Below, piece after piece: positions 2,429-52,559 of a DNA stretch of 64,000 nucleotides. Below the pieces are notes generated by a model that worked only from the letters and a program-made list of their open reading frames with translations, made no database searches and was not told the origin of the DNA. Location: NCBI GenBank assembly GCA_030674475.1, contig JAUSCZ010000035.1:6432-70431 (forward strand), in the 5' to 3' direction. Each line of letters begins with the position of its first letter. The stretch's first letter is position 1. This DNA comes from Candidatus Omnitrophota bacterium. GTDB lineage: Bacteria; Omnitrophota; Gorgyraeia; Gygaellales; UBA12090. The position numbers and the translations under genes are program-made.

Positions 2429-3076
2429 TTATAACAATTTCTCCAGGAATGTCTTTTGAACAGCGTAAATCCTCTCTATCTCGTCTTCCTTAAGCCCGGC
2501 TGAGAGGGCGGCATTCTTTAAGTCATTTATGGATAAAATGTCTTCCGGTTTATGGCTGTCGTTGTCAATAATTAAGTTAGCTCCGGTTTTTCTGGCTATT
2601 TCCACTATATGAGAATTGCCCTGAGAATGGCCTCTGCGGGTAGTTATTTCCAGGAAGATGCCTTTTTCTTTGGCCAGCAAAGCGTCGGCTTCGCTGATAT
2701 TACCCGGATGGGCCAGGATATTGATATCCGAAAGCAGGGCCGCCCGGTTGGTTCCTATAGTTACCGGTTCAACCGGAGATTCTCCGTGGCCGATAATAAT
2801 TTTTATTCCCGCTTTTCGGGCAAACTTAGTCAAAGGTAAAAATTGTTCTAAAGGGATATGGGTCAACTCTACTCCGGGAAGCACTTTTATCTTGGAGCCT
2901 TTAGGCCAGTTTTGACAAAATTCAATTATGGCCCGGGTGTTGGTTTTGATATTACTATAATCACCGTGGTCGGTAATGGCGATTATTTGATAACCCTTTT
3001 CTTCGTAACGCCGGGCAATCTCAGAAGGCAGTAAACAGCCGTCGCTGAGCAGGGAATGAGTATGGAGGTCATACAT
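2429..3076 (-). CDS. PHP-domain metal-dependent phosphoesterase
   Basis: N-terminal MYDLHTHSLLSDG motif typical of PHP/histidinol-phosphatase-family proteins, plus later His/Asp clusters. Confidence 0.65.
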   Translation of the reverse strand: MYDLHTHSLLSDGCLLPSEIARRYEEKGYQIIAITDHGDYSNIKTNTRAIIEFCQNWPKGSKIKVLPGVELTHIPLEQFLPLTKFARKAGIKIIIGHGESPVEPVTIGTNRAALLSDINILAHPGNISEADALLAKEKGIFLEITTRRGHSQGNSHIVEIARKTGANLIIDNDSHKPEDILSINDLKNAALSAGLKEDEIERIYAVQKTFLEKLL

Positions 3077-3093
3077 CTTTTAGTTTTTTCTTA

Positions 3094-3149
3094 GTAAGGG
3101 CGGGTTCGAACCCGCCCTTACGATAGTGGGGTTCGAACCCGCCCCTACT
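3094..3149. repeat. Two adjacent family-C palindromes (GGGCGGGTTCGAACCCGCCC type)
   Basis: Perfect inverted repeat gtaagggcgggttcgaacccgcccttac, followed by an imperfect copy agtggggttcgaacccgcccctact. Related copies lie at 5739-5766 and 22369-22399. Confidence 0.6.
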
Positions 3150-3156
3150 GTATTAC

Positions 3157-3229
3157 TGCCCCTGGCAAGAATCGAACTTGCCCACGCGGTTTAGGAAACC
3201 AATGCTCTATCCTTATGAGCTACAGGGGC
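3157..3229 (-). tRNA. tRNA-Arg (anticodon CCU)
   Basis: Reverse complement reads GCCCCTGTAGCTCATAAGGATAGAGCATTGGTTTCCTAAACCGCGTGGGCAAGTTCGATTCTTGCCAGGGGCA. It has a 7-bp acceptor stem, a D-arm GCTC/GAGC, an anticodon loop TTCCTAA (anticodon CCT), a T-arm GCAAG-TTCGATT-CTTGC and discriminator A. CCA is not encoded. One mismatch at the top of the anticodon stem. Confidence 0.7.
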
Positions 3230-3466
3230 GGGAATACATCGTTTTAGGCGCTCTCTATTAAATCCTGATTTTAAAGCTTTTTCACGTGCTCTGGCAGCTT
3301 TACGTGAATCTAATTCTTCGTAACGCAGTAAAACCCATGGTTTAAAAAATTTTGTAGATTTTGTTTTTCCAGCATTATGTTCTTTTATTCTCGTGTTAAG
3401 ATTTTGAGTTAATCCTATATATATTCTATTATGCTTAACAGATCGCAATACATATACATAGTACAT
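3191..3466 (-). CDS. Small GIY-YIG nuclease-superfamily protein (COG2827/UPF0213-like)
   Basis: MYYVYVLRS...RIYIGLTQNLNTRIKEHNAGK..TKFFKPWVLLRYEE matches the GIY-YIG / URI-domain small-protein signature. The C-terminal 13 codons overlap the tRNA-Arg gene. Confidence 0.7.
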   Translation of the reverse strand: MYYVYVLRSVKHNRIYIGLTQNLNTRIKEHNAGKTKSTKFFKPWVLLRYEELDSRKAARAREKALKSGFNRERLKRCIPAPVAHKDRALVS

Positions 3467-3510
3467 TTTATTTTATAGAGCCACTGCTCCCTGCCTGCCG
3501 GCAGGCAGGT

Positions 3511-3534
3511 ATCCTTATGAGCTACAGGGGCGGG
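3511..3534. repeat. Direct repeat of tRNA-Arg 5' end (24 bp) flanking the GIY-YIG ORF
   Basis: atccttatgagctacaggggcggg at 3511-3534 is identical to 3209-3232 (tRNA nucleotides 1-21 plus 3 flanking nt). Confidence 0.7.
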
Positions 3535-3537
3535 CGG

Positions 3538-4098
3538 TTATTCGCCTTCAAAATGCACTAAGGAAACAATGGGGTAGTTTTTGAGCTTCTCTCTTCCTTT
3601 TAAGTCAACCAGCTCAATCACAAAGGCCAGGCCAACCACCTTAGCCCCTTGAGCTTCAACTAAGTCTGCCACCGCCCTGACTGTGCCTCCGGTAGCCAGC
3701 AAATCATCAATGATTAAAACCTTATCCCCCGGATTTAAGGCGTCCTGGTGGATTTCCAGGGTATCCGTGCCGTATTCCAAATTATAGGTAATACCTTTGG
3801 TCTTGGCGGGAAGCTTTCCTTTTTTGCGGACAGGGATGAAGCCAAGATTAAGCCTGGTGGCCAAGGCCCCACCGAAGATAAAACCCCGAGCCTCAACCCC
3901 CACCACGTAATCAATTTTTTCCTGGGCGAATTTCTGAGCAATAAGTTCTACAGACTCCTTAAATGCCTTTTTGTCTTTGATTAAGGTAGTGATATCCCGG
4001 AATAAAATTCCCGGTTTGGGAAAATCCGGAATGCTGCGAATGCTTTTAGCTAAGTCAACTTTCTCAGGCATATTTGGCCTCCATATCGTTGACGACAA
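3538..4098 (-). CDS. apt: Adenine phosphoribosyltransferase
   Basis: PRTase motif VLIIDDLLATGGT and overall APRT-like sequence. True start is probably the internal M (MPEKVDL). Confidence 0.8.
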   Translation of the reverse strand: MSSTIWRPNMPEKVDLAKSIRSIPDFPKPGILFRDITTLIKDKKAFKESVELIAQKFAQEKIDYVVGVEARGFIFGGALATRLNLGFIPVRKKGKLPAKTKGITYNLEYGTDTLEIHQDALNPGDKVLIIDDLLATGGTVRAVADLVEAQGAKVVGLAFVIELVDLKGREKLKNYPIVSLVHFEGE

Positions 4099-22332: not shown

Positions 22333-22399
22333 CCTGCCTGCCGGCAGGCAGGGTTTGGCTTTCAATATAGTAGGGGCAGGTTCAGAACCTGCCCCTACT
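22333..22399. repeat. Composite of a family-B palindrome (CCTGCCTGCCGGCAGGCAGG) and a family-C palindrome variant
   Basis: ccctgcctgccggcaggcaggg at 22333-22353. agtaggggcaggttcagaacctgcccctact at 22369-22399. Other family-B copies at 1766-1785, 3489-3509, 13690-13712 and 15554-15569. Confidence 0.65.
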
Positions 22400-51439: not shown

Positions 51440-52272
51440 AACTTCTTCAACTCCTGCCTGGCCTCGCCGACAGTCAAAGGCAAATGCTCAATATTATGGC
51501 CATCCTCATTTTTCAAAACCTCAAACAAATGGCCGATATGGGGCAGGCGTAATTTAGCGCTTTTAAGTTTATCCGAATCGGAAAATACCGCTTGAGGCGC
51601 GCCGTCCTGGGCTACTATTCCCTTATCCAAAATAATCACCCGGTCAATAAATACCGGGACCAAATCCACCGAATGGGTAGACATCACAAAGGTAATCCCT
51701 TTTTGTTTATTTAGATTCTTCAATAACCGCATTATGGAGCTTACCCCGGCCGGGTCCAAACAGGAAGTAGGCTCATCCAAAAGGATAATTTCCGGATCCA
51801 TTGCCAGAACCCCGGCTAAACAAACCCTTTTTTTCTGCCCAAAACTTAAAGCGTGTATCGGCCGCTGGGCGAAATCGGACATCTCTACCGCCTCCAGGGC
51901 CGAGCTCACCCTTTGCCTGACCTCTTCGCGGCCCAAACCCATATTCACAGGCCCAAAGGCGATATCTTGAGCTACGGTGGGAGAAAACAGCTGATCCTCG
52001 GGATTTTGAAACATAGTGCAGACTTTAGTAAACAAAGCATCCCGGTCAATAGACTTGATATTTTTCCCCTCAATTAAAATATCGCCTTGAGCCGGTTTCA
52101 ACAGCCCGTTAAGTAATCTTAAAAGCGTGCTTTTACCGGAACCATTGCCTCCAAGAACTCCGGCGAATTCGCCCTTAGGAATAGAAATATTAATTCCCTT
52201 TAAAGCGGCAGTGCCGTCAGGATAAGAAAAATAGACCTCTTTGGCTTCAATGGCTTTATGATTAACGTTCAC
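51430..52272 (-). CDS. cbiO: Cobalt ECF transporter ATP-binding protein
   Basis: Walker A GGNGSGKST and ABC signature. Lies in the cbiMNQO context. Confidence 0.8.
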   Translation of the reverse strand: MNVNHKAIEAKEVYFSYPDGTAALKGINISIPKGEFAGVLGGNGSGKSTLLRLLNGLLKPAQGDILIEGKNIKSIDRDALFTKVCTMFQNPEDQLFSPTVAQDIAFGPVNMGLGREEVRQRVSSALEAVEMSDFAQRPIHALSFGQKKRVCLAGVLAMDPEIILLDEPTSCLDPAGVSSIMRLLKNLNKQKGITFVMSTHSVDLVPVFIDRVIILDKGIVAQDGAPQAVFSDSDKLKSAKLRLPHIGHLFEVLKNEDGHNIEHLPLTVGEARQELKKLWS

Positions 52273-52559
52273 CCCGCCCTTCCTCCACTCGTTAGCCCAA
52301 GACGTAACTTAAGCTTTGATAGACCGCTTCCATAAGTCTTCAAACTTTTTTCCCGTTCATATGCCCAATCTTTGAATGGATACGCCTCATAATAAATTAA
52401 TTCTACCGGTAACATCTTTTTAGTAGAATAAACTTTCCCTTCGACATGTTCTTTTAATCTTCTTACTAAATCATTAGTGCAGCCAATATAGATTGCCGGC
52501 ATCTTATCACTCTTTAGTAGATACACATAATACCAACTGCTAGGAAGGGCGGGGTTCAT
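52269..52559 (-). CDS. Small GIY-YIG nuclease-superfamily protein (second copy of the family)
   Basis: WYYVYLLKSDKMPAIYIGCTNDLVRRLKEHVEGK..TKKMLPVELIYYEAY...REK. Embedded between cbiQ and cbiO with a 4-nt overlap. Confidence 0.7.
   Translation of the reverse strand: MNPALPSSWYYVYLLKSDKMPAIYIGCTNDLVRRLKEHVEGKVYSTKKMLPVELIYYEAYPFKDWAYEREKSLKTYGSGLSKLKLRLGLTSGGRAG

Follow-up and report, generated by a model that had tools for sequence, protein, structure and literature searches.

A GIY-YIG gene overlapping tRNA-Arg(CCU)

We analysed a 64,000-nucleotide stretch (hereafter the window) of a Candidatus Omnitrophota metagenome-assembled genome, in which a small GIY-YIG nuclease gene overlaps a tRNA-Arg(CCU) gene and has, on its other (upstream) side, a hairpin and a partial copy of the same tRNA. 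We refer to this arrangement as the cassette. It lies between apt (3538-4098, NCBIfam equivalog) and a gene for a PHP-family phosphatase (2429-3076), and the open reading frame (ORF) of the nuclease is the only ORF between these two neighbours. Loci of relatives are cited by the locus numbers of this analysis (L001 and so on). The features of the block are given below, with tRNA positions in nucleotides (nt) and the supporting evidence in brackets.

3157-3229, minus strand: intact tRNA-Arg(CCU) (ARAGORN, cct; Rfam RF00005, 55.8 bits)
3191-3466, minus strand: GIY-YIG ORF of 91 amino acids (PF01541 match)
3236-3466, minus strand: GIY-YIG nuclease domain, ORF residues 1-77 (Pfam, invariant residues, AlphaFold, fold matches)
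3191-3235, minus strand: C-terminal tail of the ORF, CIPAPVAHKDRALVS and stop, mostly encoded by the tRNA gene (sequence)
3208-3232, minus strand: downstream copy of a direct repeat, three upstream bases and nt 1-22 of the intact tRNA (repeat search)
3467-3480, minus strand: A/T-rich linker CTCTATAAAATAAA, ending at the ORF start codon (sequence)
3481-3489, minus strand: rest of the displaced tRNA copy, nt 23-31, GAGCAGTGG (sequence; comparison with L213)
3490-3509, no strand: PAL1, a perfect 20-bp palindrome, CCTGCCTGCCGGCAGGCAGG (CCTGCCTGCC/GGCAGGCAGG) (inverted-repeat search)
3510-3534, minus strand: upstream copy of the direct repeat, displaced 5' part of the resident tRNA-Arg(CCU), three bases and nt 1-22 (repeat search; alignment to the tRNA of empty-site relatives)
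3093-3149, no strand: two T-arm-like family-A hairpins of the GGGCGGGTTCGAACCCGCCC type, AAGGGCGGGTTCGAACCCGCCCTT and GTAGGGGCGGGTTCGAACCCCAC, just past the tRNA (repeat search; alignment with L213, L214 and L209)

A first-pass annotation, made from the letters of this DNA, had placed the only tRNA of the window at 3157-3229 on the minus strand and a 91-residue GIY-YIG ORF at 3191-3466 overlapping it. Both are confirmed, the tRNA by ARAGORN (as the sole tRNA in the 64 kb) and Rfam, and the ORF by its match to PF01541 (E 1.9e-17). The final codons of the ORF, GCC CCT GTA GCT CAT AAG GAT AGA GCA TTG GTT TCC TAA, are nt 1-38 of the tRNA, and the ORF ends in the anticodon loop of the tRNA-Arg, at the UAA on the 3' side of the CCU anticodon (TAA, 3191-3193). 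The direct repeat noticed in the first pass also exists, but it measures 25 bp (3510-3534, nt 1-22 plus three bases) rather than 24 bp (3511-3534, nt 1-21 plus three). Its copies at 3208-3232 and 3510-3534 are 100% identical, and a same-strand 25-mer repeat would be expected about 2e-6 times by chance in 64 kb (64000^2/2 x 4^-25).

The palindrome that had been seen between the ORF and the upstream repeat is PAL1, which lies 24 nt upstream of the ORF start codon and splits the displaced tRNA copy at D-loop position 22/23. Beyond PAL1 the sequence goes on as tRNA nt 23-31, which the first pass had not noticed, so the upstream repeat belongs to a longer, truncated copy of the tRNA (nt 1-31) that PAL1 interrupts. 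The linker at 3467-3480 may be degenerate tRNA nt 32-40 or else sequence belonging to the cassette; tRNA-like sequence extends to nt 40 in other Omnitrophota. No Shine-Dalgarno motif is visible in this linker. At position 27 the displaced remnant keeps the G27 of relatives with an empty site (see below), while the intact tRNA of the window has T27. By alignment, this G27T change is the sole difference between the intact tRNA and the tRNA of those relatives. T27 (window position 3203) faces C43 in the intact tRNA-Arg(CCU), a mismatch at the top of the anticodon stem.

Searching 2900-3800 with Rfam at E values up to 1 returned the tRNA and no group I intron, group II intron or other family. A promoter and terminator scan found no terminator and, on the minus strand upstream of the ORF, no convincing promoter. 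The leader and the whole ORF-tRNA transcript fold no better than shuffled sequences (z about -1.1), and these predictions give no ground for proposing any special RNA structure other than the hairpin. In the fold predicted for the ORF-tRNA transcript (3150-3540, minus strand; z -1.06, not above shuffles), the displaced fragment contributes its 5' acceptor strand to a pairing with the 3' acceptor strand of the intact tRNA.

Near-identical genomes have an empty site

Look-ups of the exact apt and GIY-YIG protein sequences of the window gave no match, and the genomic context was taken from homologues. Contigs carrying homologues of the PHP-family phosphatase at 92-94% identity show three states of the locus. 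The proteins encoded in these relatives (L209-L211 and L213-L216) are 94-96% (apt), 92% (PHP) and 97-98% (sigma-70) identical to those of the window. The first state is the empty site that the first-pass annotation had predicted, an uninterrupted tRNA-Arg next to apt. It is found in L213/L216 (Omnitrophica WOR_2 RIFOXYB2_FULL_45_11), where the sequence reads GAAGGCGAATAA-CC-GCCCCTGTAGCTCATAAGGATAGAGCAGTGG and an uninterrupted tRNA-Arg(CCT) begins 2 nt after the apt stop codon. The order there is apt-TAA-CC-tRNA-PHP, and the amino acid identity to the window is 96% for apt, 92% for PHP and 97% for sigma70.

The second and third states have unrelated inserts at the same place. L209-L211 (2880-3320) have an ORF of 117 amino acids matching PF05635 (23S_rRNA_IVP) between apt and the tRNA, unrelated to the GIY-YIG ORF, and L214/L215 (3130-3385) have a 250-bp non-coding hairpin element in the same spacer. 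The PF05635 ORF is bounded by inverted arrays of GTCCACA-type heptamers and the hairpin element by inverted GTCACAA arrays. The apt-tRNA spacer is a hot spot at which different sorts of hairpin-bounded cassettes insert.

Compared with these relatives, the window contains about 306 extra bp, made up of 4 nt, tRNA nt 1-22, PAL1, the remnant with the linker, and the ORF. It differs further by G27T in the intact tRNA and by the two T-arm-like hairpins after the tRNA (3093-3149), which are missing from the close relatives L213, L214 and L209. The extent of the difference agrees with the element of about 300 bp, with part of its tRNA target duplicated, that the first pass had outlined. On the evidence of these alignments, the cassette is an indel between near-identical genomes, and it appears to be dispensable because such genomes lack it or hold unrelated inserts in its place. 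The closest homologues of the ORF are 73-76% identical, and the closest flanking genes are 92-98% identical and lie in genomes without the ORF. Either a gain of the cassette in the window lineage or a loss from its closest relatives would account for this.

The design recurs across phyla and follows tRNA isotype

A family scan of 185,579 species genomes yielded 80 homologous loci. They come from Omnitrophota, many Bacteroidota (including isolates), Ignavibacteria, Chlorobiota, the candidate phyla radiation (CPR/Patescibacteria), Margulisiibacteriota, Gammaproteobacteria, Acidobacteriota and others. A tRNA on the same strand adjoins the ORF in 74 of the 80, and most loci also have partial copies of this tRNA that a hairpin interrupts. 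At 64 of these loci the tRNA starts where the nuclease domain ends (median offset -1.5 nt), and at 10 it lies just upstream of the ORF; some of the six loci without an adjacent tRNA are at contig ends. In 49 of the 64, a stretch of 15 nt or more from the tRNA 5' part recurs without mismatch upstream of the ORF. The tRNA isotypes at the 74 loci are Arg (38), Glu (15), Ala (5), Ser (4), Gly (4), Met (2), Pro (2), Lys (1), Leu (1) and Asp (1), with one left untyped by ARAGORN.

A neighbour-joining tree of 90 nuclease domains groups the ORFs by tRNA isotype and not by host phylum. Hosts of the Glu clade include CPR, Bacteroidota, Gammaproteobacteria and Bdellovibrionota, and those of the Arg/Lys/Met clade include Bacteroidota, Omnitrophota, Chlorobiota, Ignavibacteria and CPR. 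The tRNA-encoded tail APVAHKDRAAVS is common to about 26 protein homologues of 57-76% identity; it is conserved because the tRNA is. Some homologues additionally have an N-terminal extension that is the translated fragment with PAL1 (APVAHKDTCLPAGREQQFP). No partner gene around the cassette is conserved across phyla.

Tandem amplification is seen in the complete genome of Marivirga tractuosa (L077 2680-4900, CP159478), in which five near-identical units of 383 bp stand in tandem behind a pair of intact tRNA-Glu genes, each unit composed of a GIY-YIG ORF, a T-loop double hairpin, a tRNA 3' end and a terminator. Marivirga tractuosa is a culturable carrier in which a change of copy number could be measured; Flagellimonas, Litoribacter and Pedobacter are culturable carriers too.

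Partial tRNA copies contain conserved hairpins

The truncated tRNA copies of the Arg clade begin near nt 1 and break off at nt 31-60. Among 44 loci of this clade, at least 29 have PAL1 or a near variant beside the ORF. Of 34 hairpins of this kind, 30 come directly behind GGATA/GAATA, where the D-loop ends. At least 24 loci, belonging to several phyla, have the exact 20-mer at this D-loop position, and its sequence is unchanged between Omnitrophota, Flavobacteriia and CPR. In variants such as CCTGTCTGCCGACAGGCAGG, the paired positions 5 and 16 have changed together. PAL1 also interrupts broken copies at 8/9, 9/10, 12/13 and 26/27 and in the T-loop (L001, L084), and it occurs twice per fragment in L182 and L187. 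A second 20-mer, CCTGTCTACCGACAGGTAGA, which is PAL1 with five transitions, is present in addition in L082 and in the Bacteroidota loci L009/L012.

The broken copy of the Glu clade contains a different hairpin, a double hairpin of about 30 nt located exactly between anticodon positions 35/36 or in the T-loop. Its sequence is variable and both helices are kept, with 97.4% of cells paired and 7 of 12 pairs changed on both sides. Covariation scores 0.476, compared with 0.14 for shuffled alignments; none of 500 shuffles reaches 0.476, and all slid controls stay below 0.05. Compensatory changes thus maintain the pairing of the hairpins, indicating a structural constraint on them. The hairpins are seen in broken tRNA copies only, which is partly definitional since ARAGORN would not call a hairpin-bearing tRNA intact.

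Several loci reveal a replacement of alleles. In L001 the flanking fragments are of the GCCCCTG.../...CAGGGGCA type and the intact tRNA between them is GCGCCTG.../...CAGGCGCA; in L084 the fragment and the intact tRNA have the reverse allele types. L161 and L167 likewise combine fragment and intact tRNA of different alleles, of tRNA-Lys and tRNA-Val. Since fragment and intact allele differ at these four loci, the intact tRNA or its 5' part would arrive with the cassette. We rejected, as a general rule, the idea that a sequence difference between the tRNA of the cassette and its target provides immunity: fragment and intact tRNA are usually the same.

L123 (180-400) has an intact tRNA-Ala, flanked by an 11-bp inverted repeat (CTGCTATTGCC / GGCAATAGCAG), that interrupts a resident tRNA-Ala at about nt 38. 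The 3' fragment of the resident bears PAL1 in its T-loop, so that the locus is in effect a tRNA gene within a tRNA gene, with no ORF.

PAL1 also occurs alone

The window has two further copies of PAL1 away from the cassette.

1766-1785, no strand: solo copy of PAL1 (exact match; alignment with L213/L214)
22333-22352, no strand: solo copy of PAL1 in a hairpin-rich intergenic region (exact match)

Against L213/L214, the copy at 1766-1785 is a clean insertion of 20 bp between GAAT and CAAG (L213 4600-4860) with no target duplication. PAL1 therefore looks like a discrete 20-bp insertion that forms without target duplication and is polymorphic between relatives. The reverse case concerns another hairpin, GTAGGGGCTGTTCGCGAACAGCCCCTAC, which is present in L213/L214 and missing from the window near 1700-1760. 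Close to the second solo copy, at 22370-22398, stands the hairpin GTAGGGGCAGGTTCAGAACCTGCCCCTAC, related to the hairpins at 3093-3149.

Metagenomes contain the exact 20-mer at at least 120 loci (L089-L208), in at least 127 copies. Among the metagenome matches listed, 7% of solo copies lie within perfect flanking stems of at least 7 bp, compared with 0.6% of controls; these figures point only weakly to an insertion of PAL1 always in hairpin loops, an idea that we set aside. Copies among these matches often sit between short heptamer-like repeats that recur on both sides.

Solo copies accompany the cassette in L218 (two), L088 (one) and the window (two), making five in about 109 kb. PAL1 is absent from all eight loci of cassette-less relatives (0 copies in about 22 kb), a difference that is suggestive but falls short of significance. 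Across about 240 kb of Bacteroidota loci, PAL1 is found solely inside the tRNA fragment beside the ORF, with no solo copy. Because PAL1 is confined to the ORF-adjacent fragment there, we take it to be a part of the cassette that in some lineages may also have multiplied alone.

The protein is predicted to be a minimal Slx1/UPF0213-type nuclease

The match to PF01541 covers residues 1-71 and scores 63.8 bits against a cut-off of 22.6. Across 39 homologues, Y5, G18, R26 and E62 are invariant and Y3, Y16, E29, H30 and N31 nearly so; the conserved set includes the tyrosines and glycine of the GIY and YIG motifs and the catalytic-type Arg and Glu. The AlphaFold model has a predicted local distance difference test (pLDDT) score above 87 for residues 1-70 and of 83.8 overall, and the tRNA-encoded residues 81-91 are modelled as disordered (pLDDT below 50). 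A sequence search of the PDB found only the UPF0213 proteins 1ZG2/1YWL (BH0048, EF2693). Foldseek places UPF0213 1ZG2 first, followed by Slx1 (7CQ2/4XLG/6SEI); I-TevI comes ninth and UvrC fifteenth. For Slx1-Slx4, the matches to the nuclease domains have TMq 0.57-0.63 and 25-34% identity.

Pfam and NCBIfam contain no match to a second domain (TIGR01453 scores 20.1 bits against a cut-off of 56). We considered a homing endonuclease of the I-TevI type and rejected it: the protein has no C-terminal NUMOD, IENR or HTH domain, and there is no self-splicing intron in 2900-3800. A group I intron in the tRNA was rejected as well, since Rfam finds the tRNA only and the downstream tRNA is complete without splicing. 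The homology and the model instead suggest a minimal stand-alone nuclease domain of 77 residues and of Slx1/UPF0213 type, without a DNA-binding domain. In this respect the first-pass description of a homing-endonuclease-like element was not borne out, as far as an enzyme of the I-TevI type is concerned.

Slx1 cleaves branched and stem-loop DNA in a structure-specific way. By analogy, the predicted activity of an Slx1-type protein fits a hairpin-associated enzyme better than that of a homing enzyme that reads sequence would. A survey of the superfamily from 2006 assigns the stand-alone bacterial proteins of this kind to the Slx-1 cluster, regards them as its domain in minimal form and reports no link to tRNA genes (PMC1564403). 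The ratio of nonsynonymous to synonymous substitution rates (dN/dS) of the ORF is 0.11-0.25, indicating purifying selection. PADLOC gave weak matches (E about 2e-4) to candidate defence proteins; these and the PHROG matches are marginal and cover the generic GIY motif only.

The first-pass annotation had also suggested a search for further GIY-YIG paralogues, and a second one lies at 52269-52559 on the minus strand. It is 45% identical to the first and lies between cbiQ and cbiO, its stop codon overlapping the cbiO start. On either side stands one arm of a perfect inverted repeat of 14 bp, ACCCCGCCCTTCCT / AGGAAGGGCGGGGT (52271-52284 / 52542-52555), whose arms resemble the GGGCGGGTTCGAACCCGCCC hairpins of the window. 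More than 100 homologues of this paralogue all start with MNPALP and end with KGRAG, which are the translated repeat arms, and because they share these ends the arms belong to a conserved cassette. There is no tRNA near the second paralogue, which groups with the Glu clade in the tree.

The cassette has a fixed place in distant Omnitrophota

More distant Omnitrophota (L001, L081-L084, L088, L217 and L218) have the cassette at the same locus, in the order PPDK - sigma70 - apt - cassette - PHP. The identities of their proteins to those of the window are:

GIY-YIG: 55-75%
apt: 61-82%
PHP: 57-64%
sigma-70: 59-67%

The order of divergence is not fully congruent, L217 having 63% identity for apt and 75% for GIY-YIG, and L218 82% and 73%. 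The tRNA fragments follow the lineage-specific substitutions of the local intact tRNA, and in L081, L082 and L088 the two are identical through nt 40. Since the fragments match the local tRNA, gene conversion or repeated re-creation would be needed. From these comparisons the cassette appears to be long-lived and under selection, yet polymorphic.

Interpretation and alternatives

We consider it somewhat probable that the region is a copy of a compact selfish cassette that lives in tRNA genes, targeting the tRNA gene and restoring it. On the minus strand, its order would be the apt stop codon, the displaced tRNA nt 1-31 with PAL1, the linker, the nuclease ORF and the intact tRNA. The 5' part of the intact tRNA would be a duplicated or imported copy, by which the tRNA would remain functional and on the apt transcript. 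Like Slx1, the nuclease may act on branched, cruciform or stem-loop DNA that forms at the hairpin or the tRNA gene, and cut it there. Repair of the break by recombination, with the tRNA sequence as homology, would then copy hairpin, ORF and tRNA into a naive cognate gene in a homing-like manner; the resident 5' part would stay behind as the fragment, and the rebuilt gene would still be transcribed from apt. Recombination between the two copies of the 25-bp repeat would delete the cassette precisely and give the empty site. PAL1 would be the cis hairpin of the cassette, able to spread alone, and it may slow the loss of the cassette because it breaks the homology up into stretches of 22 nt and about 9-18 nt.

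This reading draws on the observed anatomy, on an empty site that matches exactly, on the recurrence of the design across isotypes and phyla, the clades that track tRNA isotype, the allele replacement, the tandem amplification, the selection on the ORF, its conserved catalytic-type residues and fold matches, the constraint on the hairpins and the clean 20-bp indel of PAL1. Every step of the movement of the cassette is what we infer, and several points weigh against a selfish mobile cassette. The single syntenic locus in Omnitrophota, with divergence like that of its neighbours, fits vertical residence or domestication as well as repeated invasion. Among the metagenome matches listed, about 10% of PAL1 copies are near a tRNA or a GIY-YIG ORF and about 90% are away from both. 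A fragment with PAL1 followed by an intact tRNA occurs with no ORF in L055, L167 and L123; these versions look like non-autonomous derivatives, or else they are a sign that the ORF is not needed in cis. As to a vector, tblastn against phages and plasmids gave no match to the protein, and IMG/VR contained neither a relative nor the pattern of PAL1 in a D-loop. The protein has no DNA-binding domain to give site specificity, and since intact tRNA and displaced fragment usually agree in sequence, a nuclease reading tRNA-gene sequence would also cut the tRNA of its own cassette.

The core idea of the first-pass annotation, a small selfish element that duplicated part of its tRNA target, is nevertheless largely right, with the design recurring in 74 of 80 loci. 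That annotation had counted two findings against it. One is a repeat explained by a second, degenerate tRNA copy; the repeat does come from such a copy, but this copy is the displaced 5' part of the resident gene and so is itself the footprint. The other is the same arrangement without the direct repeat in related genomes, and this is seen in one of them (L084, with ORF and tRNA and no upstream repeat).

Part of the evidence could also be accommodated by a system resembling the repetitive extragenic palindromes and their associated tyrosine transposases (REP/RAYT), an explanation that we regard as rather unlikely. A mostly vertical, single-copy nuclease would mobilise or maintain PAL1, its position at the tRNA would serve expression, and the fragments would be collateral damage of hairpin insertion and repair. 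The dispersal of PAL1 (two solo copies in the window and at least 120 metagenome loci, mostly off tRNAs) and the clean 20-bp indel agree with this, as do PAL1 on both sides in L001, the two PAL1 per ORF-adjacent fragment in L182 and L187, and the inverted arms (MNPALP...GRAG), resembling family-A hairpins, that bracket the second paralogue family. So do the synteny and neighbour-like divergence in Omnitrophota, the absence of PAL1 from the eight cassette-less loci and the solo copies flanking the cassettes of L218, L088 and the window. However, it leaves the adjacency to a tRNA in 74 of 80 loci and the isotype-tracking clades unexplained, PAL1 is never solo in the roughly 240 kb of Bacteroidota, the count of co-occurrences is too small for significance, and the enzyme is of the GIY-YIG and not the HUH/Y1 (IS200/IS605-like) type. 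A tRNA-linked function of benefit to the host, such as upkeep or repair of tRNA genes, defence against elements that cleave tRNAs or integrate into them, or processing of the co-transcript, with the fragments as old scars, seems improbable to us. The dN/dS of 0.11-0.25, the retention of the locus over the deep divergence of Omnitrophota, the tight conserved ORF-tRNA junction, suggesting co-transcription, and the weak PADLOC matches speak for it. Yet near-identical genomes have no cassette or have unrelated inserts at the same spot, tandem amplification and allele replacement look selfish, the PADLOC and PHROG matches are to the generic GIY motif only, and no partner genes are conserved across phyla.

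We give still less credence to a passive origin, in which a local partial duplication of the tRNA, or a hairpin insertion followed by repair, happened to enclose an unrelated ORF and the nuclease took no part. The ORF-less arrangements of fragment, PAL1 and tRNA in L055, L167 and L123 would suit it, and so would the unrelated inserts accepted by the apt-tRNA spacer (the IVP ORF of L209, the hairpin element of L214), but the association is too regular, given the 74 of 80 loci, the isotype-specific clades and a hairpin type for each clade. Finally, the first-pass annotation had allowed for the remnant of a larger integrative element, that is, an island or prophage at a tRNA att site that shrank to 300 bp. 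tRNA genes are classic integration sites, and islands flanked by tRNA direct repeats are well established. Here, no integrase or island gene lies between apt and PHP, the repeat is the 5' part of the tRNA (nt 1-22) and not the 3' part, the 300-bp architecture is intact in dozens of lineages, and phage, plasmid and IMG/VR collections contain no homologue, so that this origin is effectively refuted. A selfish, tRNA-restoring cassette is the reading that we retain. A wider proposal, which we offer tentatively and hold to be doubtful, is that minimal Slx1-type GIY-YIG nucleases are the enzymes of a hitherto unrecognised kind of bacterial mobile DNA: hairpins of at least 20 bp that, without target duplication, would enter by preference the loops of DNA able to form stem-loops, such as the D, anticodon and T loops of tRNA genes. 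The autonomous form would include the nuclease gene and a replacement tRNA and would thereby destroy its target and rebuild it at once, as a GIY-YIG counterpart of REP/RAYT that depends on tRNA genes and is spread over many phyla.

Relation to known systems and implications

The cassette shares features with several known systems. T4 SegB is encoded by a GIY-YIG gene between or next to tRNA genes, is present or absent in close relatives and presumably spreads by break repair that copies the gene with neighbouring tRNA sequence (PMC2330249). SegB, however, is encoded by a phage, has a DNA-binding region and cleaves at a defined site, whereas the present enzyme is a chromosomal domain of 77 residues that is absent from phage collections. 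Seg elements, moreover, do not leave the partial tRNA duplication and conserved hairpin found here.

Mitochondrial mobile endonuclease ORFs, as in the Allomyces atp6 hybrid gene, insert into a gene and bring a replacement for the displaced gene end. Mobile GC-rich double-hairpin elements that enter loops of structural-RNA genes are described as accompanying such ORFs (Paquin et al. 2000, as cited in PMC3787672). As in the cassette, the host gene is kept functional by a carried duplicate of the displaced part, and short mobile GC-rich hairpins are found alongside. The mitochondrial ORFs differ in being organellar, in targeting protein genes, in duplicating the 3' end and in encoding larger endonucleases; the cassette is bacterial, has a tRNA target, usually duplicates the 5' part, has its hairpins in D, anticodon and T loops and encodes a minimal enzyme.

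REP/RAYT systems resemble the cassette in having a nuclease gene flanked by a dispersed cognate palindrome, in being usually single-copy and mostly vertical, and in insertion without target duplication. Unlike it, RAYTs are HUH/Y1 enzymes, REPs are imperfect palindromes that move as doublets, and there is neither a link to tRNA nor a regenerated host gene. Integrase islands at tRNA genes have the same target, supply a tRNA segment that keeps the gene intact and leave a partial tRNA copy at the far end; the cassette has no recombinase, measures 300 bp and not kilobases, duplicates the 5' part and has variable breakpoints (nt 31-60) in place of a fixed core site. The Slx1/UPF0213 proteins (YhbQ, BH0048, EF2693) are the closest relatives in sequence, with the same fold and a single domain without an auxiliary one; Slx1, in contrast, needs Slx4 and a RING domain. 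We know of no function for bacterial UPF0213 proteins, nor of any reported tRNA linkage or flanking repeats. Full-text literature searches, whose coverage is incomplete so that an earlier description is possible, found no account of small GIY-YIG genes tied to bacterial tRNA genes or of the PAL1 sequence. The cassette is apparently an instance of a widespread class of tRNA-gene-resident GIY-YIG cassettes with conserved hairpins that is undescribed in the literature searched.

If this reading is correct, it would show how mobile DNA can settle in an essential, single-copy gene without cost, namely by bringing along the piece that it displaces. Such cost-free occupation is known from integrase islands and a few mitochondrial ORFs, and not for a 300-bp bacterial element with a minimal nuclease. 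PAL1, a perfect 20-bp palindrome identical across phyla and acting as a discrete insertion, makes such movement accessible to experiment, and pairs of small nuclease and hairpin may be of use as structure- or site-directed DNA tools. The cassettes would also account for many of the partial tRNA genes and tRNA-overlapping ORFs in annotations of Bacteroidota, CPR and Omnitrophota. The large bacterial UPF0213/Slx1-like GIY-YIG family, to which no function is assigned, would thereby gain a biological context as selfish cassettes resident in tRNA genes.

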